This document shows, piece after piece, positions 3,737 to 36,985 of a stretch of 64,000 bases of DNA; positions within the stretch are counted from its first letter, which is position 1, and each line of letters starts with the position of its first letter. Position numbers and translations under genes: made by a program. The DNA is from Candidatus Blackburnbacteria bacterium RIFCSPLOWO2_01_FULL_40_20 (GTDB taxonomy: Bacteria; Patescibacteriota; Microgenomatia; UBA8517; UBA10165): NCBI GenBank assembly GCA_001816475.1, contig MHCC01000001.1, positions 12,622 through 76,621 on the forward strand, in the 5' to 3' direction. Under the pieces are notes generated by a model, which was not told where the DNA came from, did not search any database, and saw only the letters and a program-made list of their open reading frames with translations.

Positions 3737-3775
3737 CCTAACGTACTCCGATCAGATCGGAGGAAGTGGGGACCT
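3737..3775. repeat. 39-bp hairpin repeat, copy 1 (GCCCCTAACGTACTCCGATCAGATCGGAGGAAGTGGGG)
   Basis: Identical 39-mer recurs at 27816..27854. Internal palindrome CTCCGATC-A-GATCGGAG is bracketed by CCCC...GGGG. Confidence 0.7.
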
Positions 3776-3950
3776 CAACACTCAAAATGTAACTGGGAAC
3801 ATTGTGATTCCGTTAGATTAGCGAGAAACGGTTTTCGTAGATCTCGGGGTGATGATTTTCCCCACATCCAAATAAATTGAATCTGGAGTTTCCAACATCT
3901 CCTTAGAAAGGAGGTGATCCATCCGCACCTTCCAGTACGGATACCTTGTT

Positions 3951-4737
3951 CATGTTCTTCCCCTATTACTAAGGGCATGGACTATATCTTCATCCGCAGA
4001 AAAATGACCTTTTCCGGATGACTGGATCCTATTGTTTTTGCAAAGTCCAAATAAGATTTTGCTCTAACAAAAAATCTCCAATAATTCGGGTCTGCTTTTT
4101 TGCTCGGATTATGCACCACTCCACAGCTTATACCCAACTTTTCTAAATAGTTTCTTACCTGAACTAGATCCTCAAATTTCTTTTGAGCAAAGTACAAGTA
4201 ATAACGAACAGTTGGACTTCTTGAAATACCACCCTCTGTGTCAAAGTAGCCTCTTGTGTAATCAACCTTATCTTGCCTTGTTTTAACTTGAATTCCTTTA
4301 AGAAGTTTCTTGGAAAATTCCACAATCCAAAGATTGCGGTTTTTCCCTTCTTTGTAAATCCAAGCTTTAGATCCAAGACTGAGAATACCTTTTGCAAGAT
4401 ATTCGCAATAAGATCGACTTTTAGAAGCCACTCGATAAGTGGTTTTTCTTTCTGTGGAATCATGCAACGCTCCAAGTAAGTAAGCTTTAGTCATCTTGCG
4501 GCGTCAACGTGTAGTCTCTACGGGGTCAAGCCCTTCGATCCGCCTTTTGGCGGACTCAGGACCGACTTCCCTCGGTATTTTCCCTTTTGTGTAATACCTC
4601 TACTAGGTTGAATTTTAGCTCAACCAACTCAAGTAAGCAAAGCTTGCTTTATGCTTCGCTTCACTACGCAAAAGTAGGAGTTCACCGATACAGTTGAATT
4701 TATCTACACCATTACTAGTGTAGGTCGCAACAGATTC
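3951..4737 (-). other. 16S intron 2 (group I-like), inserted between AAGUCGU and AACAAGGUA (E. coli ~1498/1499)
   Basis: The upstream exon ends in U (CATCAAGTCGT). The intron ends in G (..ACATG) directly before AACAAGGTATCCG. It contains a LAGLIDADG ORF. Confidence 0.6.
3982..4494 (-). CDS. LAGLIDADG homing endonuclease (intron-encoded)
   Basis: Motifs LLGALHDS and GYFDTEGG (LAGLIDADG-type dodecapeptides) in a 170-aa ORF lying wholly inside the 16S intron. Confidence 0.8.
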   Translation of the reverse strand: MTKAYLLGALHDSTERKTTYRVASKSRSYCEYLAKGILSLGSKAWIYKEGKNRNLWIVEFSKKLLKGIQVKTRQDKVDYTRGYFDTEGGISRSPTVRYYLYFAQKKFEDLVQVRNYLEKLGISCGVVHNPSKKADPNYWRFFVRAKSYLDFAKTIGSSHPEKVIFLRMKI

Positions 4738-4809
4738 ACGACTTGATGCTAGTTGCTGAACTTACCTTTGGGTCGCCGAGGGCGACACTTCAGGTACTTC
4801 CAACTCCTC

Positions 4810-5316
4810 TCATCTGACGGGCGGATTGCGATCCAATAAGGTTTTGGTCGCGTTCCCACCCGGCGAGCGGATTTCCCGCACCGGGCGAGACCCAAGATTC
4901 ATCCTAGACTTCAATTGTAGAACGAGCTTCAATCCCCTCTTGTTGTTGTGCCTTTTATCTCTAACCAAAAGTGCGATCTTGCGAAAAATTTTATAATTTT
5001 CAACTTTTACACTTTGGAGATGATGAGCGTCAAAAAAGGGTATTAAAACTTTACGTATGTCCTCCTGAGAGTTAATCTCGTATCGATAACATTGGCTGTG
5101 ATTTCGACGCTTTTCCTTTTGGTGGTATACTGCGCCACATCCAAAGAATTCCTCAACTTTCTTGAGCAAAGACAGTTCATCTTCCCTCATTTTTATATAA
5201 AAGTGAGTCATCACACCATGTTTTGAACGAGAATAACGTTTATCAGGAGGTCGGATGCCAACATAAAAACATCCTTCTCCATCCGTTAATCCTACAATGT
5301 AGTCTGGTGAAAGCAT
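4810..5316 (-). CDS. LAGLIDADG homing endonuclease (intron-encoded; reading frame runs 15 nt into the downstream exon)
   Basis: N-terminal IVGLTDGEGCFYV is a classic LAGLIDADG motif. The ORF's last five codons (NPPVR) are read from the 16S exon CCGCCCGTCAGATGA. Confidence 0.85.
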   Translation of the reverse strand: MLSPDYIVGLTDGEGCFYVGIRPPDKRYSRSKHGVMTHFYIKMREDELSLLKKVEEFFGCGAVYHQKEKRRNHSQCYRYEINSQEDIRKVLIPFFDAHHLQSVKVENYKIFRKIALLVRDKRHNNKRGLKLVLQLKSRMNLGSRPVREIRSPGGNATKTLLDRNPPVR

Positions 5317-5692
5317 AGGTAACTCCCTTTATCACCGCTGCGTCAATAATTCCAGTATATTTCACCGAAATAAAATAATCAACAGCAGTAACTAATATGG
5401 AGTAGCTGACTTCTCTTAAGGCCTTAACCTTCATCCTTAAGAGATCTCCCTAGGTCACTATCGCTTCTGTTCCAAGCATCCAAGTTATGCCACTTCCCCA
5501 AAACACACCGCTTGGGTCGATTTGGCACCCCGATATCGATCGGAGCTTGGCTGCTTTTTGCCTCAGGCCCTCCAGCTGGTATCTCACGATAACCCAGCCT
5601 GCCAATTCTTTTTGGCTACTCCTCCTCATGTTTAGAGGAGGGAGTGGATTTAAACCACTTAGGAACAATAGCTGCTAGGCGCGCTTTAATTT
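4825..5692 (-). other. 16S intron 1, inserted between TTGTACACA and CCGCCCGTCA (E. coli ~1398/1399)
   Basis: Universally conserved 16S sequence resumes exactly on either side of the insertion. Intron type not established: the boundaries do not show the canonical U / omega-G pattern in my reading. Confidence 0.55.
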
Positions 5693-6161
5693 TGTGTACA
5701 AAGAGCGAGAACGTATTCACCGCGGTATAGCTGACCCGCGATTACTACCAATTCCGCGTTCATGCAGGCGAATTTCAGCCTGCAATCCCCACTGAGACGC
5801 CTTTTGATGAGATTAGCTCCGCCTCGCGGCTTGGCAACTCATTGTAGGCGCCATTGTAGCATGTTTGTAGCCCCAGACATAAGGGCCATGCTGACTTGAC
5901 GTCGTCCCCTCCTTCCTGTCCGATAAAATCGGACCTGTCCCGTATGAATATTTAACATACAGCAGGGGTTGCGCTCGTTACCTCACTTAAGAGAACACCC
6001 CACGGCACGAGCTGACGACAGCCATGCAACACCTGTCCTAACGCTCCGGTTTGCACCGGAGGGCTCTGACTTTCATCGGAGTTTCATTAGGATGTCAAGC
6101 CTGGGTAAGGTTCTTCGGTTCGTGTCGAATTAAACAACATGCTCCACTGGTTGTGCGCTCT

Positions 6162-6210
<49 letters not shown>

Positions 6211-6254
6211 CTCGCTTAACGCGTTAGCTTGCGGAACAGATCTCGCAAAAAATA

Positions 6255-6440
6255 CAACGTATTTTTTGCTCAAAACCCAAAATACGAAATCCTAAATTCG
6301 AAACAATATCTAAATTCTAAATTCAAATAATTAAACGTTTTGAATTTTAGGATTTTTAGATTTTGAATTTGTTTCGTGCTTCGATATTCGTGCTTTGAAT
6401 TTCTCGCAAAGAATGTATTCTTTGCGAGACCTATCCCAAG
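6255..6440 (-). repeat. AT-rich ~185-nt expansion segment inside the 16S (E. coli ~840 region)
   Basis: Inserted between GTAAACTATG... and GCTAACGCGTTAAGC. Self-complementary halves (AAATCCTAAAATTCAAAACG ... CGAATTTAGGATTT) predict a long hairpin. Built from AAATTCAAAAT-like units similar to the intergenic GAAAATT iterons. Confidence 0.5.
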
Positions 6441-7560
6441 CGAGCATAGTTTACGGCTAGGACTACAGGGGTCTCTAATCCCTTTCGCTACCCTAGCTTT
6501 CGTCTCTCAGCGTCAGAATCTTTCTAGATGTTCGCCTTCGCCGTCGGTGTTCCTCGTAATATCAACGGATTTAACCCCTACACTACGAGTTCCAACATCC
6601 CCGAAAGATCTCAAAGTTCACCCGTATTCTCCGATATCCCAGAGTTAAGCTCTGGACTTTAACAGAAAACGTGGCGGACCGCCTACAGACTCTTTACGCC
6701 CAATAAATCCGGACAACGCTTGCACCCTCCGTATTACCGAGGCTTCTGGCACGGAGTTAGCAGGTGCTTATTCTACAACCTGTATGATTGTCAAAAGGAG
6801 TTTAAGACCCGAAGGCCTTCTTCCTCCACGCGGCGTCGCGGGATCAGACTTGCGTCCATTGTCCACGATTCCCAGTTGCTGCCACCCGTAGGTGTATGAG
6901 CCGTGTCTCAGTCTCATTCTGGGGGGCCGTGCTCTAACACCCCCTACCCGTTATAGCCTTGGTAGGCCGTTACCCCACCAACTAGCTGATAGGCCGCCGG
7001 CTCTTTCTTCGGTGGACCGTTAAGTCCTTTGCTCTTGCGAGATTATGCGGTATTACCCCCGCTTTCGCGGGGCTATCCCCCACCAAAGAGTAGATTCCGA
7101 CGTGTTACTCAGCCGTCTGCCGCTATCCCGACTTGCGTCGGAATCGCTCGACTTGCATGCTTAAAGCGCGCCGCTAGCGTTCGTCCTGGGCCAGGATCAA
7201 ACCCTCAAAAAAAATTGACATGATCAACTCCGATTTACATCGGAGCAACCATGGGTTCCCAGTTACATTTTGAATGTCAAAGAGCAAATTGCAACGCAAT
7301 TTACGATGCACCCACCGATAAATCTTGGCACGAGGCGTGTACGAATAGTACCCGCAAGCCGAGTGCGAAGATAAGGCGGGAAGGTACGCATGGTCTCTTT
7401 AAACCAAAAATCCACCACATGGCGGATTAAACAAGCTTTTTAGGCTTACTGGCTTACTCTTTTCCCATGTGTTTGAAAAGTATACTCGATTCCCTATCAA
7501 TAGTCAACCATCCGTTTAGTGTAAACACATATTTGCAAATACATATATAATAGTGTTGAA

Positions 7561-7953
7561 ATGGCCGAAAGAATAAAAGTTTTAACAGTAGAAAACGATA
7601 AAAGAATCGCAGAGGTAATAAAAGACATTTTAGCTTTTGAAGAAATCGAAACAGATCGTGTGACTTGGGTTAAAACAGCAGACGAAGCAATTGAGGCTTT
7701 AAAAAGCCCAGAAAAACCTTCAATAATCATATTAAATTTGGTTCTTGATAGTGGAATTGAAGAAAGTTGGCAATTTATAAGATATGTAAGGTCACCAACC
7801 TCCCCATTTCGCGATGTTCCAATACTGGTTATAACCGGCATGGACGCATCGGACGTAAAAATGACTTGCAAAACTTTGGGGGTAGAAGGATTTTTAGCCA
7901 AACCATTCGCCATTGAAGATCTCTTACAGAGTGTAAAAGAAGTATTAAAATGA
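7561..7953 (+). CDS. response regulator receiver-domain protein (CheY-like, no output domain)
   Basis: KVLTVENDKRI...D...ILNLVLDSG...ILVITGMDASD...K follows the receiver-domain D/D/T/K pattern. Overlaps the downstream kinase gene by 4 nt. Confidence 0.75.
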   Translation: MAERIKVLTVENDKRIAEVIKDILAFEEIETDRVTWVKTADEAIEALKSPEKPSIIILNLVLDSGIEESWQFIRYVRSPTSPFRDVPILVITGMDASDVKMTCKTLGVEGFLAKPFAIEDLLQSVKEVLK

Positions 7954-9137
7954 TGACTGAAGAAGAAACAGGTATCAAGACAATCCCAAAGTCTTCCACA
8001 GACTCCGCTGAACGTGAGTCCAAAGATCATTTGCGCGTGTTTGTTGCAGAAGCCGGAACCTCAGAAGTTGCGAACAGTGCATCGTTTGAGGTATTACGAA
8101 AAACCTTAGTTGCAATAAACGCGTGCGGTAGAATCTCAAGAGCATATCAAGAAAATCCTGTAAAAGACCAGTTTAGTTTATTATCGAGGACCGACGATAT
8201 TGAGACGGACTCGAGAGTATTAAGAAATATTTGTCAGCTGGCAGTTCCTTCCGACAGTACCGCTTCTGAGCTTTTGTTACAACAACAAGAAGAACGGTTT
8301 AACGAGATTGCACATCAAGAAGAGTTAAGATATGGGAGACATTTCCCTACTGAAACTGCAGCACTAATAATTCCTGACGAAAAAACTTTAAAAGAGCTAA
8401 CTCAAACACTTGCTGATTTAAGGCACGACTTGAAAAACGCAATGTGCACTCTTCTGCCAAGAGTACAAATGGCAAGACGCGGGATAAACATAGACATTGC
8501 ACTTGAAAACATAAATTACTCATTTAATAAGGTTGGAGAGCTTACAGAAAGCGCTACAAGCTTGATCGAAAAATCTTACCCAAAAGAAAAATTGTCAACT
8601 TCAGACGTCGCAGCAGCCCTTAAAGAGTGTCTGAAAAAAAATAATCCTGCAGAAAAATCTTTAAGTATTAGCGTTATCGAGTCAGAAGAATCTCAAGATT
8701 CAATAGTGATCTGGTCGCAAAGTTGGATATCGCGTCTTGCAGCAAACATTGCCCAAAACACATTAAAGGCTTACGATGCCCGTGACGAGCTATCCCCTGA
8801 AAAAGCAAAAGGCCCAAGAATTCTTTTGGCCAGTATGCGAACAACCAAAAGTGAAAACGGGGCAAGATGTTTGAGAATTGAAGTTGATAACAGAGCCATA
8901 AAAATGCCAGATGAAATAATAAAAAATGGATTCCAAAGAGGTCTCTCGTTTTGGCCAGGAAGTTCTTTGTCGGGAGAAGGAAGGGGTATGGCCTCAGACA
9001 GTAAAACTCTTCAAGAGCAATATGGAGGAACAATTAAGGCTGAAAATATTGCTAACCAAGCGGGTGAAATAATAGGGGCAAGAATTATCATTGAAGTGCC
9101 GATCGTCAAAGATGCACCTGTGGCCTACCCATATTAA
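7950..9137 (+). CDS. sensor histidine kinase (cytoplasmic; HisKA + HATPase_c)
   Basis: H-box LRHDLKNAMCTL. C-terminal G-box-like GRGMASDSKTL...GG. No transmembrane helices. Confidence 0.65.
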   Translation: MMTEEETGIKTIPKSSTDSAERESKDHLRVFVAEAGTSEVANSASFEVLRKTLVAINACGRISRAYQENPVKDQFSLLSRTDDIETDSRVLRNICQLAVPSDSTASELLLQQQEERFNEIAHQEELRYGRHFPTETAALIIPDEKTLKELTQTLADLRHDLKNAMCTLLPRVQMARRGINIDIALENINYSFNKVGELTESATSLIEKSYPKEKLSTSDVAAALKECLKKNNPAEKSLSISVIESEESQDSIVIWSQSWISRLAANIAQNTLKAYDARDELSPEKAKGPRILLASMRTTKSENGARCLRIEVDNRAIKMPDEIIKNGFQRGLSFWPGSSLSGEGRGMASDSKTLQEQYGGTIKAENIANQAGEIIGARIIIEVPIVKDAPVAYPY

Positions 9138-9147
9138 AATTAAGTCG

Positions 9148-9186
9148 AGAGAGGGGTCATGGAGGACGTGACCCCCCTCTCTTGTA
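9148..9186. terminator. bidirectional terminator hairpin AGAGAGGGGTCA..TGACCCCCCTCTCT
   Basis: 12-bp GC-rich stem between the convergent genes 7950..9137 (+) and 9192..9755 (-). Confidence 0.45.
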
Positions 9187-9191
9187 GATTA

Positions 9192-18147: not shown

Positions 18148-18702
18148 ATGGGCATGATCAAACTTGGCTCAAAAGAACTTCGAAAAAACAAACCTGAAGA
18201 GCATCAATTAAAAGAAATTAAAAGGAATCCAATTTATATTGTATTGGATCGGGTTTGGGATACTTATAACATTGGCTCTTTATTTCGTTTGGCTGACGCG
18301 GTTGCAGTTGAAAAAGTATATCTTTGCGGCGATATGGAATACCCTCCTTCTTCCCGAATCCACAAAGCTGCAGTGGGGACTGAAGAATGGGTTCCTTGGG
18401 AAAAAAGAGACACAACAATTGAAGTAATTGATGAATTGAAGAAGAAGGGTGTTCAAATAGTTGCAATTGAACAAGATAGTAGATCAACTCTCCTAAAAGA
18501 ACTTGTACCAAGCTTCCCAGTTGCACTAATTGTTGGACATGAATCTGACGGTGTATCAAAAGAAGTATTGGATAAAGCAGACATTATTGTTGAGTTGCCG
18601 ATGTTTGGAGTAAACAAATCGTTTAACGTTTGGGGCTCGGGCGCTGTCGTTGCCTACAAAGTCCTAGAATACACACAAAAATGTCATCCTGAACGCAAGT
18701 GA
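18148..18702 (+). CDS. SpoU/TrmH-family RNA 2'-O-methyltransferase
   Basis: NIGSLFRLADAVAVEKVYLCG, GHESDGVS and ELPMFGVNKSFNVWGSGAVVAY match the three SPOUT motifs. Confidence 0.75.
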   Translation: MGMIKLGSKELRKNKPEEHQLKEIKRNPIYIVLDRVWDTYNIGSLFRLADAVAVEKVYLCGDMEYPPSSRIHKAAVGTEEWVPWEKRDTTIEVIDELKKKGVQIVAIEQDSRSTLLKELVPSFPVALIVGHESDGVSKEVLDKADIIVELPMFGVNKSFNVWGSGAVVAYKVLEYTQKCHPERK

Positions 18703-18709
18703 AGGATCT

Positions 18710-19021
18710 ATGGGCATGAAGCACTATTACACTTATATTTTGACTAACATAACAAATAATGTTCTTTATACCGGGGTAACAGGCAACTTACTTAAAAGAG
18801 TATGGCAACACAAGAACAAGCTAATTCGTGGTTTCACTCAAAGATATAATGTCAATAAGCTTGTTTACTTTGAAAGTTTCAACAACCCGCATGAAGCAAT
18901 TGCAGCCGAAAAGAAAATAAAAGGTTGGAACAGAGAGAAGAAAATTGCTTTGATTGAATCCAAAAATCACGAATGGAGAGATATGAGTGAAGAACTAGAT
19001 CCTTCGCTTCGCTCAGGATGA
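18710..19021 (+). CDS. GIY-YIG nuclease-family small protein
   Basis: YYTYILTN...LYTGVTGNLLKRVWQH followed by E and N residues fits the GIY-YIG domain. Confidence 0.75.
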   Translation: MGMKHYYTYILTNITNNVLYTGVTGNLLKRVWQHKNKLIRGFTQRYNVNKLVYFESFNNPHEAIAAEKKIKGWNREKKIALIESKNHEWRDMSEELDPSLRSG

Positions 19022-19072
19022 CAACCTAACCAGTGCTCAGGATGACAACCTAACCAGTGCTCAGAAAAAACA
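19019..19072 (+). repeat. tandem direct repeat, 24-bp unit GCTCAGGATGACAACCTAACCAGT x2.25
   Basis: Two perfect copies plus a partial third, starting at the GIY-YIG gene's stop codon. The GTCATCCTGAG core recurs at 28354 and (as GTCCTGAGC) at 44948 and 45448. Confidence 0.7.
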
Positions 19073-22385: not shown

Positions 22386-22387
22386 TT

Positions 22388-27409: not shown

Positions 27410-27432
27410 ATTGAAAATTGATTCCGATAGGA
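27410..27432. promoter_or_regulatory. palindrome GATTCCGATAGGATCGGAATTG with GAAAATT flanks, upstream of copA (copy 3; loop inverted relative to copies 1-2)
   Basis: Same 7-bp arms with the spacer AGG instead of CCT. Confidence 0.4.
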
Positions 27433-27445
27433 TCGGAATTGAAAA

Positions 27446-27805
27446 TTATTTTACTATTATCTTCCCCCGGTACATATTCATGCCGCATGAATATGTATAT
27501 TCGCCCGTCTTTTGAGGATTTATTTCAACAGTAACCTTTTCACCCAAGGGCAAATCGCGCTTTATCTTAAAATCTCCTAAAACAACTTCGCTCAAACAAT
27601 CATTTTCATCCTTGCGAGTAAAGTTAATTATTGTAGTCTTGCCACGAGGAACGGTAATAATGTTTGGTGTATATCCACCATCTACTGTTATGTCAACAGA
27701 TCCGGAAGCCTTGACTTCTTTTTCCTTTTTGCCAAGGAAAAACCAATAAACAAACCCAATTCCCATAACGCCAATAATGGTAACGACTAATTTATCAATA
27801 CTCAT
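27446..27805 (-). CDS. cupredoxin-like domain protein (membrane-anchored)
   Basis: N-terminal TM helix. C-terminal EYTYSCGMNMYRGKIIV resembles the Cys/Met metal-binding motif of cupredoxin_1-type domains. The same motif type is at the C-terminus of ORF 29243..30253. Confidence 0.55.
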   Translation of the reverse strand: MSIDKLVVTIIGVMGIGFVYWFFLGKKEKEVKASGSVDITVDGGYTPNIITVPRGKTTIINFTRKDENDCLSEVVLGDFKIKRDLPLGEKVTVEINPQKTGEYTYSCGMNMYRGKIIVK

Positions 27806-27815
27806 AATCTCCTTG

Positions 27816-27854
27816 CCCCTAACGTACTCCGATCAGATCGGAGGAAGTGGGGTA
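27816..27854. repeat. 39-bp hairpin repeat, copy 2 (identical to 3737..3775)
   Basis: Overlaps the stop codon of the small ORF 27847..27996. On the minus strand it ends GGGGCAAGGAGATTATG, supplying the Shine-Dalgarno sequence and ATG of the cupredoxin gene. Confidence 0.7.
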
Positions 27855-27996
27855 TCTATTTCTTGTTTATCTGCTTCCACAAATAAACTGACAAAAGAAT
27901 AAGGGTTATTATCACCAGAATCCAAACCAAGGATCCAAGGAATGCAAAAAGCCCAAACCCTCCTCCCCAGTTCATCATGTTTCCCCAATTTCCATA
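27847..27996 (-). CDS. 49-aa Gly/Trp/Met-rich small membrane protein (not in supplied ORF track)
   Basis: My translation of the minus strand: MMGYGNWGNMMNWGGGFGLFAFLGSLVWILVIITLILLSVYLWKQINKK. Sits immediately downstream of csoR. The supplied ORF 27833..28051 is a different frame. Confidence 0.45.
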
Positions 27997-28013
27997 TCCC
28001 ATCATATTGTCTC

Positions 28014-28301
28014 TCACCCCACTTTCTTGAATATCTCAACCATCTCATCAATTACTTCTTCCCTGCCTTTTTTAACTGCGTCAGTTGTGCAAGTTTTAAG
28101 GTGATTTTCTAAAATTAAATTATCAACTCCACGAAGTGCTTTTTGGACTGCTTGTGATTGGTGAAGTACGTCAACACAATACTCCCCCTCACCAACCATT
28201 TTTATAACCTTATTAAGATGTCCCCGGACGATTTTAAGTCGGTGCAATATTGTCCTTTTTACGGACGGGTCTCGCGGAATTCCTCTTGGCATGTTTTTCA
28301 T
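28014..28301 (-). CDS. csoR: CsoR/RcnR-family metal-sensing transcriptional repressor
   Basis: RLKIVRGHLNKVIKMV...EYCVDVLHQSQAVQKAL...H...C carries the Cys-His-Cys sensing triad. The probable true start is the second Met (MPRGIP). Confidence 0.8.
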   Translation of the reverse strand: MKNMPRGIPRDPSVKRTILHRLKIVRGHLNKVIKMVGEGEYCVDVLHQSQAVQKALRGVDNLILENHLKTCTTDAVKKGREEVIDEMVEIFKKVG

Positions 28302-28316
28302 CCCCTAGAGGGGGAT
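28300..28316. promoter_or_regulatory. candidate CsoR operator: perfect palindrome ATCCCC-TAGAG-GGGGAT abutting the csoR start
   Basis: 6-bp inverted arms separated by 5 nt. A GGGG/CCCC-containing inverted repeat is the general architecture of CsoR operators. A matching ATCCCC-N5-GGGGG site precedes the second csoR gene. Confidence 0.4.
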
Positions 28317-31780: not shown

Positions 31781-32395
31781 TTATTTAATTTTCTCCAACT
31801 GATTAATCAATTGGTTATTTCTCACTCCCATTTTTGGATCATCCCACCAATATGCAACTTGCCCATCTTTGTTAACAATTACAAATGTGTGCCCCGGATA
31901 TCCGCCTTTGTGCATCGAAGAAGGCGCATAAAGTGTTTCATAGGCAGCTGATGTGGATTTTGTGTTATCAAATAAAACCTTTGCTTTTGCCAACTCGGGC
32001 ATTTTGTCCAATGCTTTCTTCCAGTTGTCCGGAACATCAACTATTACTGAGTACGTCTCAACTCCGTCTTTGCTAAACCTTTCATCCTCGCCCAATGCTT
32101 TCATCTGATCCCAACAAGCAGGATAACAAATCAATCCTTCATTAAAAAACAACAAAACAGTTTTTCCGCGAAGGTCGGATAATTTGACTGTATTCCCTTC
32201 ATAGTCTTTAAGTTCAAAATCCGGGGCTTGTTTGCCAACCATACCACCTTCAACTGACTTTCGCCCCTCCGGGTTTGGACCAAACTTTTGTGCTCCAACA
32301 ACAATGCCGCCAAGCAGGGCTATTGTTATTACAACTACAATAATTATAAATTTGTTATTCATCTTGCTCCCCCTGTTAATATATTTGTTACCCAA
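31781..32395 (-). CDS. membrane-anchored thioredoxin-fold redoxin (TlpA/ResA/peroxiredoxin-like)
   Basis: N-terminal TM helix and a thioredoxin-like fold, with the unusual CYPAC (CxxxC) motif in place of CxxC. Confidence 0.6.
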   Translation of the reverse strand: MGNKYINRGSKMNNKFIIIVVVITIALLGGIVVGAQKFGPNPEGRKSVEGGMVGKQAPDFELKDYEGNTVKLSDLRGKTVLLFFNEGLICYPACWDQMKALGEDERFSKDGVETYSVIVDVPDNWKKALDKMPELAKAKVLFDNTKSTSAAYETLYAPSSMHKGGYPGHTFVIVNKDGQVAYWWDDPKMGVRNNQLINQLEKIK

Positions 32396-33129
32396 GCCGC
32401 ATAAGTATTAACCATCACTTTGTAATCCGACCTTACCTGTAATCCCCCAGTTAATGCCAGGTAAGTAATTAAAGCGCTCATTGCTATGAAAATAATTCCT
32501 GACAATAGATTAGCAATTGTTATATTCACTTCTTTCCCAAATATTTTGTAGGTTATTCCACGCCTGACAAGCATAAACTTTTGAGTGATCTTTGTTTTGT
32601 CAATTGCCCAAGAAAGTATAAAAAGCGGAGCGACCATGCCAAGAACATAGGCAATCGCATAAAGCCCACCTAAAAGTGTTGAACCTGGCAATGCAGATAA
32701 GGCAACAATCCCCGCCAACACTGGTGCACAACAAGAGGTAGCAAATCCTGAAAACACACCCAGCATAAAGATAGAACCAAAGGTAAATTTACCGGGTGTC
32801 GTAACGCTTGTGTGCCAAGGAAGAGAAAAGCTTCTGCCTGTTAAAATCACAACGCCAAGTACAAAAAGGAATATTGCCCCAAGTATATATATTTGATCAT
32901 GGTACATTTCAAATATCTCTCCTAAAAACCCAGCACCAAGCCCAATTGGTAAAAAGACAACGGCCAGCCCCAAAGAAAATACCCCAGTCATCCCCAAGAC
33001 TGTTTTTCTTTGCGAAAAAATAGAACCCATGTAAGAAGGCAAAAGAACGGTAATGCAACAAGGCGCAAACAACGCCGCGATACCAGCAACGAATGAGGCT
33101 ATAAACGAAGCAATGGGCAAAATAGTCAT
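32359..33129 (-). CDS. ccdA: CcdA/DsbD-family transmembrane thiol-disulfide electron transporter
   Basis: Begins MTILPIASFIASFVAGIAALFAPCCITVLLP (paired Cys in TM1). Six predicted TM segments. The listed ORF's 25-codon upstream extension is probably not translated. The start overlaps the csoR2 stop (ATGA). Confidence 0.7.
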   Translation of the reverse strand: MTILPIASFIASFVAGIAALFAPCCITVLLPSYMGSIFSQRKTVLGMTGVFSLGLAVVFLPIGLGAGFLGEIFEMYHDQIYILGAIFLFVLGVVILTGRSFSLPWHTSVTTPGKFTFGSIFMLGVFSGFATSCCAPVLAGIVALSALPGSTLLGGLYAIAYVLGMVAPLFILSWAIDKTKITQKFMLVRRGITYKIFGKEVNITIANLLSGIIFIAMSALITYLALTGGLQVRSDYKVMVNTYAAWVTNILTGGAR

Positions 33130-33386
33130 GTTCTTTTGTAAAGTTCTACTAACTCTTCCAACACCTTCTCTCCTTTTCCATCCTTTATATCCTTTACAAC
33201 ACAACCATAAAGATGGCCTTGAAGAACCATCCCGTCAACATTTTTTAAAGCAGACTGAACAGCTTTTGATTGATGAATTACGTTTGGGCAATAACAGCCT
33301 TCGCGAACCATAGCAATCACCTTTTTAAGATGTCCCTCAGCAATTGCCAACCGTTTTAGTGTAAGCTCTTGAACTTTTGAATCCAT
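33126..33386 (-). CDS. csoR: CsoR/RcnR-family metal-sensing repressor, second paralogue
   Basis: LKRLAIAEGHLKKVIAMVREGCYCPNVIHQSKAVQSALKNVDGMVLQGHLYGC carries C, H and C at the sensing positions. Confidence 0.8.
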   Translation of the reverse strand: MDSKVQELTLKRLAIAEGHLKKVIAMVREGCYCPNVIHQSKAVQSALKNVDGMVLQGHLYGCVVKDIKDGKGEKVLEELVELYKRT

Positions 33387-33387
33387 A

Positions 33388-33410
33388 CCCCTACCCCCTG
33401 ATGGGGATAT
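33388..33410. promoter_or_regulatory. candidate CsoR operator ATCCCC-ATCAG-GGGGTA (minus sense) immediately upstream of csoR2
   Basis: Same ATCCCC-N5-GGGGG architecture as the site at 28300. On the minus strand GGGGTAGGGGT then supplies the RBS before ATG. Confidence 0.35.
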
Positions 33411-33450
33411 TCAAATCATACCAAACAACTTTTAATTGTCAACAAGAAGA

Positions 33451-35241
33451 TTATCTCAACTCCATCAAAAACCTTGCCACACTAACATGATCTTTAATGC
33501 GCAAATCTTTCCCGGCGTCTAAAATAAATGCAGACAAATATTGACACAAGGAATAAGAAGAAAAAGATGAGTTTCTTATAACTTCCGCCCTGTATGCCCT
33601 GGTAAAAGCATTAATTAACTGTTGAGGGTCAAGTGCCTTAGCGTGAGTATTGCGTTCGCATGCCAAATTAATTAATCGATAAACAAGCTCGCCAAACTCC
33701 CCCTTCTCTCTTCCCTCAAGCCGAATTTCGTTTCCAGAAAAGTAATTGTTCTTAACAGGCGTATACCAATAAACAGCCTTGCCACCCACCAATTCTGCCC
33801 CTAAAATGGCTTTTGAATCTGGCAATAAAAGTCTATATTCCCCTATAACAGAAGCAACAGCCTCCTTAAATCTTCCAACAATGCGAACATACAAACCAGG
33901 GAGATCAATTCCTTCATGGTTCATTCCCGATTTTGTCCTGATTTGTACAAATCTTTCAAATCCATCTTCAAATTTAGAATTACTGCGTACGAGATCCAAT
34001 ACGAGTGGCATAGCATTTTTCCCAACAGTTGAAACCAGGTACCTCTTAAATTCTACAAACTTGGTTTCCATCGCCAATTCTACAACTATAGTTGAAGCAA
34101 AATTACCACTTGTTTTAACTATCCGACGAATTTCTTCACTTGTTGGCAGCTCTTGTATGCTAACAATACTTTCTACTATCTGTCGAAATTTTTGAGCAGT
34201 ACTAGTTTCTTTTGGGCCATTTCCATTTTGCAAAACTCTGCCGCTTTTTACCCACTGAGGGAAGGTCTTTGGGAAACTTCCAACAAGAAAATCCATGTAT
34301 TTTTGGGCTTCCGGCCAATTTCGGTCTTTAACAAATTCGGCAACTGGCGTAATCAAACCTGTAAAACCAGATTGTCCGGGGATATATCTTTTCCTTGTAC
34401 TCATCAGACTTTTCAATAGTTTGACTTGATCTTGCTTAAGACCAACGCCTTGTGCTACATCGTCCATTAAGCGCTGACAAAGCCTTAAGAACCCCTGATG
34501 GATCCTTAAGCGATCTATTTTTGGCCCTAAACGATCGTCAAAATACGCTGGAAATTTGCCTGCCTCAACACCTCCAAATATTAATGCGTACTCAGCAAGT
34601 TCTCGCGCAGAACCCAACGAGCTTTGGCCATCGCCCCAACGCGCGAAATTTCCTATTAAATGGTCTTTTGCGACTTCGATCAAACAAACAAGTGCCATTA
34701 TTTTTGCCTCAGGCGAGTTTGTATCAATCTTCCCGGCTTCAACAATCTCAGTAAAAAGCTTGCTCAAGTCCAAGTATTTTTCGTGAATCGATATCGTTTT
34801 TTGTGGAACATAAAAACAAGGTAGATAAGGCAAAATACCTAAGTCTGGATTTATAAAATAAACTGCTTCAACCGCCTTGGGTACATGAACTAAACGGCCT
34901 CCAGGAGCTAAGTACATAATCTCGCCTTCTATCTTTTTTAAACGGCTTTCAGGAAGTGCTAGCTCTTTTTGTGACCTGATCCCCTCAATACCCTCATTGA
35001 TTTCTTGAGCGTGTAAGGGTTGTTGCTGCAATAGCACTTCTTTTATTCGTTCCAGTGCTAAATCTTCGCATTCTTTGCAGTATTCAAAAACAGGATCTAG
35101 CGACTCGCTTGGTGCAAGATTTTTTCTGTGAAGTACTTGGAGCTGGTCTTTAAGCCCTTGCCGGGACAGAACATGCTCTTTTGTTATCATCGGCCACCGA
35201 TTATACCCAGATCTTACTTTTTTAGCAATGTCCAGGCACAT
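33451..35241 (-). CDS. large hypothetical protein (596 aa), no recognisable domain
   Basis: Long uninterrupted ORF with ordinary amino-acid composition. Overlaps the MGMT gene's end, so probably co-transcribed. The true start is probably the internal MITKEHV. Confidence 0.55.
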   Translation of the reverse strand: MCLDIAKKVRSGYNRWPMITKEHVLSRQGLKDQLQVLHRKNLAPSESLDPVFEYCKECEDLALERIKEVLLQQQPLHAQEINEGIEGIRSQKELALPESRLKKIEGEIMYLAPGGRLVHVPKAVEAVYFINPDLGILPYLPCFYVPQKTISIHEKYLDLSKLFTEIVEAGKIDTNSPEAKIMALVCLIEVAKDHLIGNFARWGDGQSSLGSARELAEYALIFGGVEAGKFPAYFDDRLGPKIDRLRIHQGFLRLCQRLMDDVAQGVGLKQDQVKLLKSLMSTRKRYIPGQSGFTGLITPVAEFVKDRNWPEAQKYMDFLVGSFPKTFPQWVKSGRVLQNGNGPKETSTAQKFRQIVESIVSIQELPTSEEIRRIVKTSGNFASTIVVELAMETKFVEFKRYLVSTVGKNAMPLVLDLVRSNSKFEDGFERFVQIRTKSGMNHEGIDLPGLYVRIVGRFKEAVASVIGEYRLLLPDSKAILGAELVGGKAVYWYTPVKNNYFSGNEIRLEGREKGEFGELVYRLINLACERNTHAKALDPQQLINAFTRAYRAEVIRNSSFSSYSLCQYLSAFILDAGKDLRIKDHVSVARFLMELR

Positions 35242-35564
35242 ATTTCCAAATTTACGTGTTGGTTGTCTTTAAAAATCACACCTTCTTCAACTAATTTTCT
35301 TTTTTGCTCAACTTGTCCCCCAAAAGCATAACCTGTGGCAAGTTTCCCATCTTTGTTAACAACCCTATGGCATGGAATTTTTTTGGGATTTTTGTTTTTA
35401 TGCAGTGCCCACCCAACCATATTGGCTGTGATTTTTTTACCCCTTACTTCCCCAATCTCCCCAACTTCCCTTACACCCACCATCCTTGCCACCTCCCCGT
35501 AAGCCATAACCTTACCTTTTGGTATTTTCTCTACAAACTTCCAAACTAATTCGTAATAACTCAT
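35214..35564 (-). CDS. methylated-DNA-protein-cysteine methyltransferase DNA-binding domain protein
   Basis: AYGEVARMVG ... NP.KKIPCHRVV has the PCHRV active-site motif. Carries an extra GVREVGEIGEVRGKK insert. Confidence 0.7.
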   Translation of the reverse strand: MSYYELVWKFVEKIPKGKVMAYGEVARMVGVREVGEIGEVRGKKITANMVGWALHKNKNPKKIPCHRVVNKDGKLATGYAFGGQVEQKRKLVEEGVIFKDNQHVNLEICAWTLLKK

Positions 35565-36115
35565 TTTTTCTCTTTCAACAAAAACCTTAACTGTTTATCC
35601 TTCCAATCTCCCGCATAATTAATCCCAACTCTTGCAGTAGCAATTATTTCCTCCCCCTTACTTCCCCTACGCCCCAAACTTCCCCTATCCTCTACCCAAA
35701 ATCTTTCCCCCTCCACAACATCCTCCCCATAAAAACTTCCGTCAATCTTAAAAAACTTTGTTACCTTTCCTGGACCCCTTACCTCCCCAACTCCCCCAAT
35801 CTCCCTTACCCCCCTTATCAATACCCCTTGTGGATCACCAACTTTACTTGTAATTATATTCAACATCCAATGAACCCCGTAAGTAAAATAAACATATGCC
35901 ACCCCCGATTTGCCAAACATCACTTCCGTCCTTTTTGTCCTTCTTCCGCCATATGAATGTGCAGCCTTATCCTCCACCCCCATGTAGGCCTCCGTCTCAA
36001 TAATCACACCTTTTTTTGTTGACCCATCAGGGAATTTGCGCACCAAAACTTTCCCTAGAAGTTCTCGAGCGACAGCATCAGCACTCCTGTTAAAAAACTT
36101 TCTTTTAAGTCTCAC
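35561..36115 (-). CDS. DNA-3-methyladenine glycosylase (MPG/AAG family)
   Basis: ARELLGKVLVRK...GVIIETEAYMGVEDKAAHSYGGRRTKRTEVMFGKSGVAYVYFTYGVHWMLNI...VLIRGV...GPGKV matches the MPG fold signature. Confidence 0.75.
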   Translation of the reverse strand: MRLKRKFFNRSADAVARELLGKVLVRKFPDGSTKKGVIIETEAYMGVEDKAAHSYGGRRTKRTEVMFGKSGVAYVYFTYGVHWMLNIITSKVGDPQGVLIRGVREIGGVGEVRGPGKVTKFFKIDGSFYGEDVVEGERFWVEDRGSLGRRGSKGEEIIATARVGINYAGDWKDKQLRFLLKEKK

Positions 36116-36446
36116 GCGTAAATTATACGCTTTTGAAGCTAGAATACTTACCTAAATCTTACCTTTTTCTTGCCTCGTCATAACGTCAAAAACATATTAT
36201 CAAATCAATAATTTAATAATTGACCAATGAGTAACGTCTGCCTTGATTCTACTACCCAAATCACCTACTTTCCGTACTCGACTTTGTCTTCAATAAAGGG
36301 TTCGGGTTCTCAATTTGTCAACAGCTTCAACAAAGAAACTGTAATGCCCGACCCGCTTTCTTTGGTAACCCAGAGCGTCAAAAAGGCCATGAAGAATACA
36401 ATCTTTGAGCACATCTTTGTGCTCTTCACTGCACCAGTAAAATAGT

Positions 36447-36803
36447 TTACTTTTTCACCAATGACTGTAGAAGTGAGGCAATAAAGGCTAATACGATTCC
36501 GCCTGCAAGTGCGCTCAGAAATCCTTGAACCACAAACCCCGGAACGAGAAGGCTGGCAACCCACAAAACAAAAGCTGAAATTGCCCAAGAAAAAAGGCCA
36601 AAGGTTAAAAAGTTTACAGGGAGCGCCAATAATTCTAAAATTGGCTTGAGGATTGTATTTAATATCCCCAACACCAAAGCTGCTATTAAAGCAGTTGTGA
36701 AACTGCTTATTCTAATCCCCGGTATCAACCAGGCCGTTGCTAAAATGGCAACTGTGTTTATTAATAGTCTAAATAGTAAGTTCATATTGCTTGTCTCCAA
36801 CAA
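36447..36803 (-). CDS. four-TM membrane protein (phage-holin-4-like family)
   Basis: Four hydrophobic segments in 118 aa, with the pattern of the superfamily IV holin-like / DUF proteins. Family assignment tentative. Confidence 0.45.
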   Translation of the reverse strand: MLETSNMNLLFRLLINTVAILATAWLIPGIRISSFTTALIAALVLGILNTILKPILELLALPVNFLTFGLFSWAISAFVLWVASLLVPGFVVQGFLSALAGGIVLAFIASLLQSLVKK

Positions 36804-36985
36804 AGCCTAGGCAAAGCGGGAACCTGTCCCCAACGTAGCCGCAGGCGAAGTGGGATTCCCGCACTTTTACCGCGTGATTACCGTAAGAATTTACAAATAT
36901 TGTACATCATCTGATTTTTTACAACAACAATAATCACCACAAAAAGGCCATTGACAATAGGTAACATTTAATACACATTATTAAT

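Follow-up and report, generated by a model that had tools for sequence, protein, structure and literature searches.

A discrete two-tier hairpin at three loci of a Blackburnbacteria contig belongs to a widespread Patescibacteria palindromic-repeat family

Introduction

Of the REP/BIME/REPIN elements, those most like the hairpin reported here form the GTAG-tagged superfamily of REPs (Di Nocera et al. 2013, PMC3733652). In phage T4, the GIY-YIG nuclease gene segB offers a further precedent, as a gene of this kind can promote the inheritance of itself and of flanking DNA (PMC2330249). A role in RNA metabolism has been suggested for prokaryotic Slx1-like GIY-YIG domains because of one fusion to a TrmH-like methyltransferase, according to a superfamily survey in which a term search finds no mention of linkage to tRNA genes or conserved hairpins (PMC1564403). 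Here, we describe a short hairpin element found in a 64-kb stretch of Candidatus Blackburnbacteria DNA (the window) and compare it with these and other systems.

Results

The preliminary description of this DNA reported a perfect hairpin repeat, and an exact-match search of the window bears this out, its coordinates having been off by 1-4 nt: an identical 39-mer stands on the + strand at two sites (copies 1 and 2, Table 1). The 38-mer quoted at the time occurs exactly twice (3734-3771 and 27815-27852, + strand), where none is expected by chance, and an additional 5' T common to both sites extends the perfect repeat to 39 nt. Outside the 39-mer the sequences of the two copies differ, with no more than 5 matches among the 7 bases directly upstream. 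The longer duplicated block named earlier as counting against a discrete element is thus not found; the 39-nt identity lies between unrelated, diverged flanks, and the element is a discrete unit rather than a segmental duplication.

A covariance model scanned across the window returned exactly three matches of about 43 bits each, the next best reaching 10 bits, which amounts to three copies in 64 kb. The third match had been proposed as a diverged copy and is indeed a true variant with another inner hairpin. It has the same scaffold as copies 1 and 2 (GUCCC, the CA bulge, AC-GU and GUA-GAA), with an inner hairpin of 3 bp, GCC-GCA-GGC, and contains CCCCAACGTAGCCGCAGGCGAAGTGGG at 36828-36854 (three pattern matches against 0.1 and 0.0 expected). 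The longer GCGGGAA...TTCCCGC stem noted around it is present as well, and similar enclosing stems surround other family members (L060, L064 and L102).

Table 1. Positions in the window of the element copies, their smaller relatives and neighbouring features
Feature	Position	Strand	Remarks
Minimal relative GCGTAGCGTAAGCGAAGC	2648..2665	+	same C-GUA-G...C-GAA-G core
Terminator-like hairpin AAAAAACCCG...CGGGTTTTTT adjoining copy 1	3700..3729	.	read from sequence
Copy 1	3733..3771	+	exact match to copy 2; covariance-model match 3734-3773, 42.8 bits, E=5e-8
16S 3' trailer	3772..3902	-	pairs with 16S leader 7216-7283 as processing stem
16S rRNA gene	3905..7206	-	exons 7206-5693, 4824-4738, 3950-3905
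Second minimal relative GCGTAGTGAAGCGAAGC	4653..4669	-	inside 16S insertion 2
AATTCCGAT(N3)ATCGGAATT hairpin	27422..27438	.	one of four; others at 22386, 23186, 30273
Cupredoxin_1 gene	27446..27805	-	Shine-Dalgarno AAGGAG 27809-27814 abuts copy 2
Copy 2	27814..27852	+	exact match to copy 1; covariance-model match 27815-27854, 42.7 bits
Small glycine-rich membrane-protein gene	27856..28017	-	53 aa from GTG, 49 aa from first ATG
Phage_holin_4_2-family gene, downstream of copy 3	36447..36785	-	converted from L001 1021-1359
Outer stem around copy 3	36816..36862	.	GCGGGAA (36816-36822) / TTCCCGC (36856-36862)
Copy 3	36826..36857	+	covariance-model match 43.8 bits, E=2.9e-8

The element rests on a lower stem of 5 bp (NNCCC/GGGNN). 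Above this come a bulge of 2 nt (YA on the quoted strand), an AC/GU step of 2 bp and a 3x3 internal loop, GUA/GAA (UUC/UAC when read on the opposite strand), and the whole is topped by a stem-loop that varies freely. The two-tier fold predicted earlier is correct, as outer and inner stems both covary over 44 distinct family members, in which 96.9% of cells are paired, compared with 85.5% in shuffles and 36-46% with slid partners. Nearly all stem pairs are Watson-Crick, and even the two outermost pairs, which lie outside the search pattern, covary (CG 21/UA 17/GC 3 and GC 14/AU 12/GU 4). Free variation of the inner hairpin with base pairing kept suggests that the folded single strand is what matters, not a sequence motif in duplex DNA. 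We therefore find it hardly credible that a regulator such as CsoR, or a nucleoid protein, binds the element as double-stranded DNA. Its CCCC...GGGG symmetry is reminiscent of CsoR operators and one copy does lie within the copper operon, but other copies follow rRNA and tRNA genes, and CsoR-operator-like palindromes are found elsewhere, at 28300-28316 and about 33392, where each of the two csoR genes has one between its -10 element and start codon; these are likely the CsoR operators.

On the quoted strand, the invariant core 5'-C GUA G...C GAA G-3' carries the signature, in sequence, of a tandem sheared G.A pair flanking a U.A pair (loop E/sarcin-ricin type). The genes flanking the window copies all lie on the minus strand, so local transcripts hold the reverse complement of the quoted sequence, and all three copies are transcribed with the pyrimidine loop UUC/UAC, not GUA/GAA. 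The two minimal relatives of the element, in turn, present GUA/GAA in sense orientation, one 50 nt after tRNA-Ile (a 2-bp hairpin capped by GUAA, to which the covariance model gives no score) and the other in a 16S insertion. Four further hairpins of the AATTCCGAT(N3)ATCGGAATT type have the stem core TCCGAT/ATCGGA, which is also the inner-hairpin core of copies 1 and 2.

Copy 1 had been assigned to the 16S 3' flank, a location that stands; the true 3' end of the 16S gene is at 3905, and copy 1 lies 134 nt past it. The 16S gene is interrupted by two insertions with LAGLIDADG ORFs, and its trailer and leader form a predicted duplex of -58.6 kcal/mol, with an inverted 18-mer at 3783 and 7255, whose pairing stops one base short of copy 1. 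Kept in 8/8 strain contigs examined and transcribed as the reverse complement within the 16S 3' trailer, copy 1 sits between the 3' strand of this processing stem and the terminator-like hairpin. The latter stands between an A-run and a T-run, and its two strands have folding energies of -16.0 and -14.5 kcal/mol; a simple terminator scan did not call it. That copy 1 has such a separate hairpin alongside is one of several observations that make it very improbable that the element itself is an intrinsic, possibly bidirectional, transcription terminator. The element does usually stand at gene ends, and A-runs and T-runs flank some family members (e.g., L074, L116, L059 and L103), but no U-tract follows any of the window copies on either strand, copy 2 is internal to an operon, copy 3 stands between divergent genes, and terminators do not feature a conserved internal loop and bulge.

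Copy 2 occupies a 50-nt spacer of the csoR-cupredoxin-copA operon, between the small membrane-protein gene, whose homologues in Daviesbacteria are 48-aa and 45-aa ORFs, and the cupredoxin gene. It was proposed to overlap the stop codon of the former and to provide the ribosome-binding site of the latter; in fact, the TAG codon (27856-27858, minus strand) is 3 nt apart from it, and AAGGAG merely abuts it, with one base in common with the 39-mer. The spacer position between a stop codon and the next gene's Shine-Dalgarno sequence, along with a stable predicted hairpin in the operon RNA (-15.7 kcal/mol), would suit a dedicated translational or RNA-stability control of this operon. However, the predicted fold leaves the cupredoxin Shine-Dalgarno sequence unpaired, and its stability is at the level of shuffled sequence (z = -0.7). 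Moreover, the identical 39-mer also follows the 16S gene as part of a widespread family, and this spacer in strain L130, whose cupredoxin protein is 99% identical, lacks the element, as do those of a homologous Daviesbacteria operon (L131, with a spacer of 10 nt) and of the other homologous operons examined (L132 and L133). Together with the separate palindromes at the promoters, which are the likely CsoR operators, these observations make dedicated operon control very unlikely. Thus, of the earlier interpretation, the discreteness, the two-tier fold and the variant third copy stand, whereas the purpose-built control at 27.8 kb is not supported. As modelled, the -16 kcal/mol hairpin may still have a side effect on mRNA decay or processing.

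Copy 3 precedes the start codon of the Phage_holin_4_2-family gene and is divergent from the giant-protein gene. It is kept in all of the strain contigs covering the site (10/10, L001-L010) and in L130.

Beyond the window, a scan of species-representative genomes yielded 48 hairpin-containing matches, most of them in contigs deposited as Uhr-, Roizman-, Berkel-, Woese-, Parcu- or Saccharibacteria or as 'Patescibacteria group', while a scan of viral contigs gave chance-level matches only. The window hairpins therefore belong to a widespread palindromic-repeat family of Patescibacteria (candidate phyla radiation), which matches no Rfam family. Its placement is biased: 18 of the 48 copies lie at most 300 nt downstream of a tRNA or tmRNA 3' end, compared with 1 of 75 controls, i.e., hairpin-less matches to the same pattern. 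Other copies are placed after 5S rRNA (L116) or before a 16S gene (L082). Relative to tRNAs, both orientations occur and are about equally common; in tandem contexts, 10 copies are same-sense and 8 antisense to the flanking ORFs. Inverted or tandem doublets make up about 10 of 53 loci, and some genomes carry several copies with identical or near-identical variable hairpins (e.g., CAYMIY01, L018 twice and L041; JAGORL01, L108 and L121).

In the fullest context, the CCA end of a tRNA or tmRNA gene is immediately followed by an inverted doublet, and this in turn by a GIY-YIG nuclease gene; elsewhere, single units and doublets lacking the gene are dispersed in both orientations. Copies 1 and 2 match the tRNA-abutting first unit of the doublet in both sequence and transcript orientation (CACUUC-CUCCGAU..AUCGGAG-UACGUU in the window, CACUUCG-CUCCGAU..AUCGGAG-CUACGUU in L159). 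Some tRNA-abutting copies carry cUUCGg loops in transcript sense.

Besides SmpB, the GIY-YIG ORF is the sole recurrent neighbour in the genome scan (7/48 loci, leaving 41 solo copies). It encodes a protein of 78-80 aa that comprises the nuclease domain only, is of the Slx1/UPF0213 type and has invariant Tyr, Tyr-x-Gly, Arg, His and Glu positions (alignment A1). Among solved structures, its nearest relatives are the UPF0213 proteins and SLX1, a structure-specific endonuclease (best match 1zg2, E=5e-13, then 1ywl and several SLX1 entries). The family holds more than 4,000 clusters at 90% identity, and those named by organism are mostly from Patescibacteria. When the search started from the protein, a tRNA or tmRNA was found at most 300 nt upstream on the same strand in 42/76 metagenome loci, and a sense copy of the element stood beside the start codon of the 78-aa gene in 23/80 sampled loci. 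Covariance-model matches fell within 230 nt upstream of the ORF in 34 of 35 cases at E<=0.1 and in 56 of 59 at E<=5. Sense copies upstream of the gene favour G.U over A.C by 9:1, and a long-range pairing between the tRNA 3' end and the segment just before the sense unit covaries.

The window itself has no 78-aa GIY-YIG gene. It does hold a 103-aa relative (18710-19021) that is about 30% identical and has no element upstream. A SpoU methyltransferase gene in the window is directly followed by a GIY-YIG gene.

Discussion

Our results establish a hairpin family with a covarying structure, a biased location and a linked nuclease gene, of which two identical copies stand at unrelated sites in the window and one differs in presence between strains. 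A widespread family at stable-RNA 3' ends and before a GIY-YIG gene points to a miniature mobile element and not to a dedicated copper-operon regulator. We thus hold, with confidence evenly divided between its being right and wrong, that each of the three loci holds a solo copy of a short REP/MITE-like mobile hairpin whose RNA effects, if any, are secondary. Copies would spread by DNA-level copying, for example when a nuclease initiates repair, or gene conversion takes place, at an extruded hairpin; the GIY-YIG protein may drive this in trans. A copy landing in a transcription unit would merely add a stable stem-loop to the RNA. The two orientations, the doublets, the variable hairpins common to several loci of a genome and the strain-variable copy 2 are all mobile-like traits. 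Counting against mobility are the fixation of copies 1 and 3 across the strain contigs, the small number of copies in the window and the lack of the 78-aa gene there; also, no pair of filled and empty sites with clean boundaries was found, since the copy 2 site in L130 is not a precise empty site but unrelated sequence including (GTCTAA)x5.

Alternatively, the hairpin may be a functional RNA module that marks the 3' trailers of stable RNAs, and some mRNAs, for processing, 3'-exonuclease protection or protein binding, with dispersal being secondary. We consider this possible yet doubtful, and it is compatible with a mobile element. The small GIY-YIG protein could be the binder, working as an RNase; alternatively, the hairpin could serve as an autoregulatory leader on the mRNA for that protein. 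The strong concentration of copies right after tRNA, tmRNA, 5S and 16S genes speaks for such a module, as do the exact start of units at the CCA end, their co-transcription with stable RNAs, and the position of copy 1 between processing stem and terminator-like hairpin. So do the transcript-sense cUUCGg loops, the wobble bias of the sense units, the covarying helix with the tRNA 3' end, the purine-rich GUA/GAA loop set between C-G and G-C, which recalls loop-E-type modules, and the small sense hairpins after tRNA-Ile and within the 16S insertion. The GIY-YIG/TrmH-like methyltransferase fusion reported in the superfamily survey (PMC1564403) and the SpoU methyltransferase-GIY-YIG gene pair of the window point the same way. 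However, as both orientations are about equally common relative to tRNAs and ORFs, many copies would present UUC/UAC instead of GUA/GAA, as all three window copies do, and the solo set has no strand bias in wobble pairs (6:5, with almost no wobble pairs in a second set). Furthermore, copy 2 is dispensable in a near-identical strain, no Rfam family matches, and identical variable hairpins at unrelated loci would still require a copying mechanism.

Like MITEs, the element is a short non-coding repeat whose solo copies outnumber protein-linked ones (41 vs 7 in the genome sample), with one copy present or absent between strains. However, it is much shorter than typical MITEs, shows no target-site duplication and, besides the hairpin itself, no conserved transposase-type terminal inverted repeats, and no related insertion sequence was identified. 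Integron attC sites are likewise folded single-strand sites in which boxes pair, some bases are extrahelical and the terminal structure varies, and the element's 5' CCC(T)AAC resembles the RYYYAAC box. Its 3' side, however, reads GTGGG and not GTTRRRY, it spans 27-50 nt compared with 57-141 nt for attC, and it lies outside cassette arrays with no integrase seen.

SLX1 cleaves branched and stem-loop DNA, and SegB-family homing endonucleases such as I-TevI have a separate DNA-binding domain. The protein found here has its best matches among solved structures to SLX1 and bacterial UPF0213 (YhbQ-like) nucleases; because SLX1 cuts stem-loop DNA, a hairpin substrate would, by analogy, fit. As with SegB of phage T4, its gene lies among or next to tRNA genes (PMC2330249). 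SegB, however, is a site-specific enzyme, whereas this protein is a nuclease domain alone, belongs with Slx1/UPF0213 rather than the homing-endonuclease/UvrC lineage, and is accompanied by a conserved folded element with no counterpart in SegB. The likeness to loop E and sarcin-ricin motifs is one of sequence, and in half of the family, the three window copies among them, transcription runs the opposite way, giving the loop UUC/UAC.

With the GTAG REPs, the element has in common a palindromic unit of 27-50 nt with GTAG by a variable stem (GTAC in copies 1 and 2), compensatory stem changes, several copies in a genome that stand alone or in tight inverted dimers and clusters, and a position mostly downstream of genes, in either orientation and plausibly transcribed (PMC3733652). 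It differs in that its GTA(G) is internal, forming one side of the 3x3 loop between two stems, while the REP tag is terminal and unpaired; in that its density is low here; and in that no RAYT (Y1 transposase) neighbour was seen, the GIY-YIG nuclease recurring instead. The same flank sequence is conserved over contigs deposited under at least six candidate Patescibacteria phylum names rather than being species- or genus-specific, and the element strongly prefers tRNA and tmRNA 3' ends.

A discrete hairpin repeat at three sites in the window

The 38-mer quoted in the preliminary description occurred exactly twice in the window (zero expected by chance), and one further identical base at its 5' end brings the perfect repeat to 39 nt. 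Outside these 39 nt, five of the seven adjacent bases were identical between copies 1 and 2 and the remaining flanks were unrelated, which excludes a longer duplicated block and bears out the view of a discrete element rather than a segmental duplication. A third locus with kept flanks and a different inner hairpin was also recovered as described (CCCCAACGTA-GCCGCAGGC-GAAGTGGG), as was the longer GCGGGAA/TTCCCGC stem around it, 5' of a Phage_holin_4_2-family gene. Patterns built on the flanks only gave three matches in the window, where 0.1 and 0.0 were expected, and a covariance model built from unrelated genomes found exactly three sites in the 64 kb (43.8, 42.8 and 42.7 bits), with the next at 10 bits. 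Since the genes beside all three copies lie on the minus strand, the local transcripts carry the reverse complement, CCCCACUUC-CUCCGAUCUGAUCGGAG-UACGUUAGGGGCA. All three copies are singletons with no doublet among them, and no target-site duplication shared by the flanks of copies 1 and 2 was seen. The organism comes from the Rifle aquifer and belongs to the candidate phyla radiation (CPR); GCA_001816375.1 and GCA_001816535.1 hold the same contigs, and a relative at strain level has been deposited under the name Candidatus Blackburnbacteria.

Coordinates of the element and associated features (window positions unless a retrieved locus or contig, L plus number, is named)
Feature	Position	Strand	Remark
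Copy 1	3733-3771		exact 38-mer at 3734-3771 (+)
Copy 2	27814-27852		exact 38-mer at 27815-27852 (+)
Copy 3	36826-36857	+	flanks and inner hairpin at 36828-36854
16S rRNA gene	3905-7206	-	true 3' end 3905; exons after the first, 4824-4738 and 3950-3905
16S insertion 1	5692-4825		LAGLIDADG ORF 4810-5316
16S insertion 2	4737-3951		LAGLIDADG ORF 3982-4494
Rfam 16S match	5643-7212
16S leader; trailer	7216-7283; 3772-3902		inverted 18-mer at 7255 and 3783
Terminator-like hairpin	3729-3700		after copy 1
boxA-like motif	7275-7287		16S leader
CUCCGAU-GUAA-AUCGGAG hairpin	about 7228-7246		directly 5' of the 16S 5' end
tRNA-Ile(GAT), complete	2526-2598		nested region 2450-2712
tRNA 5' half; 3' half	2452-2487; 2624-2712
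Additional nested tRNA 5' half	L217, 600-1200		strain contig
Minimal hairpins	2648-2665; 4653-4669	+; -	tRNA-Ile trailer; 16S insertion 2
Shine-Dalgarno of cupredoxin gene	27809-27814
Membrane-protein ORF (53/49 aa)	27856-28017		stop codon 27856-27858
71-aa ORF (public call)	27833-28051	-	spans the element
Homologue of 27806-27855	L130, about 9085-9165		strain contig
CsoR-operator-like palindromes	28300-28316; about 33392-33410		two csoR paralogues
SpoU/TrmH-type methyltransferase gene	18148-18702
103-aa GIY-YIG gene	18710-19021
24-nt direct repeat	19011 and 19035		region 18148-19060
TCCGAT(N1-9)ATCGGA palindromes	3747, 5919, 7229, 22387, 23187, 27423, 27828, 30274
Copies with identical variable hairpin	L018, 1860-1950 and 5450-5535		one MAG
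Inverted/tandem doublets, spacing up to about 100 nt	L011, L025, L035, L058, L092, L093, L096, L113, L129		also GIY-YIG gene leaders

The palindrome TCCGAT(N1-9)ATCGGA occurred eight times in the 64 kb, compared with about 0.1 per 100 kb in control loci. Four of the eight are AATTCCGAT(N3)ATCGGAATT hairpins with TTGAAAATTG repeats on their flanks, located at gene ends; these could be terminators or members of a second repeat family.

Copy 1 abuts the 16S processing stem

Near its 3' end the 16S gene is interrupted by two insertions, each with one LAGLIDADG ORF, and the final two exons are not covered by the Rfam match. Leader and trailer of the 16S gene pair into a long processing stem (duplex -58.6 kcal/mol; inverted 18-mer CAAAATGTAACTGGGAAC), whose 3' strand stops one base short of copy 1, and a terminator-like hairpin with A- and T-runs, uncalled by a simple terminator scan, follows the copy. 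Among strains, no empty site for copy 1 was found, the copy being present in all eight contigs.

The same region showed several other features. The 16S leader holds a boxA-like TTGCTCTTTGACA and the hairpin listed in the table. A tRNA 5' half, broken in the anticodon loop, and the matching 3' half, whose T-loop holds two small hairpins, enclose a complete tRNA-Ile(GAT) gene; with the additional nested 5' half of a strain contig, the region looks like a product of serial insertion into a tRNA gene. Minimal hairpins of the form GCGUAG-(CGUAAG/UGAAG)-CGAAGC, with the element's GUA/GAA core, lie in the tRNA-Ile trailer and in 16S insertion 2, both in the sense of their own transcript.

Copy 2 is an add-on to the csoR-cupredoxin operon

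Copy 2 occupies most of the 50-nt spacer between the gene for a 53/49-aa membrane protein and the cupredoxin gene. The preliminary description had the element overlapping the stop codon of the former and supplying the ribosome-binding site of the latter from its 3' end; in fact, the stop codon lies 3 nt off, and the Shine-Dalgarno sequence abuts the element and is unpaired in the fold predicted around copy 2. A strain contig encoding a 99% identical cupredoxin (L130) carried unrelated sequence in this spacer, including (GTCTAA)x5, while retaining copy 3, and the homologous Daviesbacteria operon has only a 10-nt spacer from its 48-aa gene to the cupredoxin gene. The spacer of copy 2 is a hotspot of between-strain variation. 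Palindromes resembling CsoR operators were found elsewhere, between the -10 box and start codon of two csoR paralogues (ATCCCCCTCTAGGGGAT and ATATCCCCATCAGGGGGTA). Given its absence from L130 and Daviesbacteria and the position of these palindromes, copy 2 is an operon add-on and no conserved control device, contrary to the translational or RNA-stability control suggested for it. Its -16 kcal/mol hairpin may have an incidental effect on mRNA processing. The element was also considered as a CsoR operator itself and rejected, as it sits within the operon and beside the 16S gene, the operator-like palindromes being at the csoR promoters instead.

As for the strain contig, its corresponding stretch has no obvious Shine-Dalgarno sequence and holds the (GTCTAA)x5 microsatellite. 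Public gene calls place a 71-aa ORF across the element; this call is probably spurious, because it is the glycine-rich membrane ORF, read in a different frame, that is conserved in Daviesbacteria. The covariance model, which separates true copies cleanly from noise, could spare annotators such spurious ORFs, and could also flag strain-variable insertions within operons.

The element belongs to a family with a conserved two-tier fold

The exact 37-mer had no match in species-representative genomes. We therefore replaced it by a gapped flank pattern with a free middle, which returned more than 119 loci in these genomes. A perfect hairpin of at least 3 bp was present in the free middle of 48 of the 123 pattern matches, almost all of them reading CCCC(N)AACGTAG-[hairpin]-CGAAGTGGG; the other 75 were hairpin-less, came from all kinds of bacteria and served as an internal control. 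Most of the 48 were in contigs deposited as Uhr-, Roizman-, Berkel-, Woese-, Parcu- or Saccharibacteria or as 'Patescibacteria group'. Sixteen were in bulk-submitted MAGs, where '(uncultured) Gammaproteobacteria' is a deposited label only.

When 44 distinct members were aligned, 96.9% of alignment cells were paired, compared with 85.5% in shuffled and 36-46% in partner-slid alignments, and the two outermost pairs, which lie outside the search pattern, covaried (CG 21/UA 17/GC 3 and GC 14/AU 12/GU 4). The consensus unit, 27-50 nt long, consists of a lower 5-bp stem NNCCC/GGGNN with a 2-nt bulge (CA, UA or AA) and an AC/GU step, and an upper part in which a 3x3 loop GUA/GAA leads, through a G-C closing pair, into a variable stem-loop of 9-30 nt. 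GTA(G) faces CGAA(G) and separates the inner stem from the conserved outer one. It reads GTAG in 41 of the 44 members; in copies 1 and 2 of the window it is GTAC, and these two also have a C-G closing pair in place of the usual G-C.

Rfam 15 returned no family matching the element at gathering thresholds for the whole window or 20 family loci, and at E<=10 four element-containing stretches gave noise only, far under the thresholds. In viral contigs, essentially all of 122 pattern matches lacked the CCC flank or had no proper hairpin, which is chance level, and the family is not evidently phage-borne. Some genomes, like the window, hold several copies with variable hairpins identical or one base apart, and the sampled contigs of one MAG held up to five. 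Two copies with identical variable hairpins in one MAG (L018) were each preceded by a T-run and a different internally compensated hairpin (GGGAAGTACC..GGCACTTCCC and GTGGTGTGTACC..GGTACACACCAC), so these repeat units appear mosaic.

Many family members lie near tRNA genes, and some precede a minimal GIY-YIG nuclease gene

Within 300 nt downstream of a tRNA or tmRNA 3' end we found 18 of the 48 copies but only one of the 75 control matches; one copy comes after a 5S rRNA, another before a 16S gene. One subclass starts two bases past the CCA end, antisense to the search pattern; a second, in sense orientation, is found 5-95 nt downstream. About ten loci held two or three units inside 100 nt, mostly as inverted doublets in which, along the direction of tRNA transcription, the antisense unit comes before the sense unit. 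Relative to neighbouring ORFs (naive ORF calling), no orientation bias was seen (10 vs 8).

Clustering of ORFs in the 2.5 kb around the 48 copies (8-kb genome pieces) gave only two recurrent neighbours, a GIY-YIG protein (seven loci) and SmpB (four loci), the latter trivially, since SmpB neighbours tmRNA; solo copies exceeded gene-linked ones, 41 to 7. The GIY-YIG protein, of 78-80 aa, starts 4-90 nt past a sense copy in all seven loci and consists of the GIY-YIG domain alone (Pfam E=5e-15 and 1e-17), with the Tyr, Tyr-x-Gly, Arg, His and Glu positions invariant. Among solved structures it is closest to the UPF0213 proteins 1zg2 and 1ywl and to SLX1, a structure-specific endonuclease, and its family comprises more than 4,000 clusters at 90% identity, the organism-named ones mostly from Patescibacteria.

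Proceeding in reverse, from the protein, we collected 80 metagenome loci. A tRNA or tmRNA lay within 300 nt upstream on the same strand in 42 of 76, with at least 16 different tRNA identities represented, and model matches lay within 230 nt upstream of the GIY-YIG ORF in 34 of 35 cases at E<=0.1 and 56 of 59 at E<=5. Sense matches adjoined the start codon in 23 of the 80 loci, and antisense matches lay 80-140 nt farther upstream, abutting the tRNA end. Alignment of the spacers showed that the bases after the CCA end (e.g., CACACUUCG) are perfectly complementary to those preceding the sense unit (CGAAGUGUG), that this pairing covaries between loci, and that the first unit's lower stem is partly supplied by the tRNA's own 3' end. 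Window copies 1 and 2 correspond to the first doublet unit in sequence and transcript orientation, inner hairpin included (CUCCGAU..AUCGGAG; compare L159, L153 and L138). The gene-repeat linkage is seen in other genomes, and the window holds no 78-aa GIY-YIG gene.

The window does hold a 103-aa GIY-YIG gene, directly after a SpoU/TrmH-type methyltransferase gene and followed by a 24-nt direct repeat, GCTCAGGATGACAACCTAACCAGT.

A mobile repeat, an RNA module or part of a nuclease system

The most economical reading of these findings is a REP/MITE-like family of mobile hairpins, to which we give roughly an even chance, based on the discreteness of the element, the presence of identical copies at unrelated loci, polymorphism between strains, the lack of an orientation preference, doublets, the excess of solo copies and the linkage to a nuclease gene found behind many tRNAs. 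Such an element could spread by a structure-specific nick at the extruded hairpin, followed by repair-mediated copying that would plausibly be driven by the Slx1-like protein. T4 SegB, a GIY-YIG homing endonuclease inside a tRNA cluster, offers a precedent (PMC2330249).

As the main rival reading, which we consider less likely, the element may act at the RNA level as a module for the 3' ends of stable RNAs, a role compatible with mobility. The exact CCA junction of the units and the covarying long-range helix from the tRNA end to the segment before the sense unit favour such a role, as do the cUUCGg loops found in transcript sense in some copies and the 9:1 excess of G.U over A.C, seen only in sense copies upstream of the GIY-YIG gene; solo copies have too few non-Watson-Crick pairs for this wobble asymmetry to distinguish RNA from DNA. 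Moreover, a role in RNA metabolism has been suggested for prokaryotic Slx1-like domains on the strength of a fusion with a TrmH-like methyltransferase (PMC1564403), and the adjacent SpoU and GIY-YIG genes of the window echo that fusion.

It is also possible, if on the unlikely side, that the element is the cis-acting or recognition module of an undescribed, Patescibacteria-wide system joining tRNA genes to a minimal GIY-YIG nuclease. This system would consist of a 78-aa, nuclease-domain-only Slx1-like protein encoded right behind tRNA or tmRNA genes, with an inverted doublet running from the CCA end before it. It could be either a structure-guided homing element, in which a folded DNA target replaces the DNA-binding domain, or a 3'-end processing or quality-control device for stable RNAs; in either case, the three window copies would be orphan targets. 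Because CPR genomes are tiny and streamlined, a non-coding element conserved across many lineages is unexpected in them. Should the nuclease link prove functional, the large, uncharacterised prokaryotic Slx1/UPF0213 family would gain a concrete nucleic-acid substrate testable in vitro, and the position of GIY-YIG genes behind tRNA and tmRNA genes would be explained.

Comparison with known repeat and site classes

Searches of the literature for the element sequence, its GIY-YIG/UPF0213 relatives and a Patescibacteria tRNA link returned no description of the element. Several known classes were considered and rejected. As to an intrinsic terminator, none of the three copies was picked up in the terminator scan or is followed by a T-run on either strand; T-runs occur at a minority of family members outside the window. 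As to a MITE, neither terminal inverted repeats nor a target-site duplication nor any related insertion sequence of the autonomous kind was identified, and no transposase was found near the window or family copies. The defining sequence or spacing features of K-turns, tetraloop receptors, hammerhead, twister and pistol ribozymes, CRISPR repeats and attC sites are likewise missing. A C-GUA-G/C-GAA-G signature recalls the Loop E/sarcin-ricin module, a likeness at the level of sequence only.

The closest parallels are the GTAG-tagged REPs, which the element resembles in size, GTAG motif, compensatory stems, dimers and location, and which reach tens to hundreds of copies per genome (PMC3733652). 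Like these small (20-40 bp) palindromes, it can fold as a stem-loop and is frequently arranged in opposite-orientation dimers or clusters, as in BIMEs and REPINs. However, REPs carry an unpaired GTAG tag at the end of the palindrome, whereas the GTA(G) of the element is internal and faces GAA across a loop. REPs also neighbour a RAYT (REP-associated Y1 tyrosine transposase), while no RAYT was found among the ORFs within 2.5 kb of the 48 copies, whose recurrent neighbour is the GIY-YIG gene. Furthermore, unlike in REPs, the flank sequence is conserved across many deposited candidate Patescibacteria phylum names. Taken together, the element is no canonical terminator, MITE, attC site, CsoR operator or Rfam family; we therefore class it among the structured palindromic repeats.
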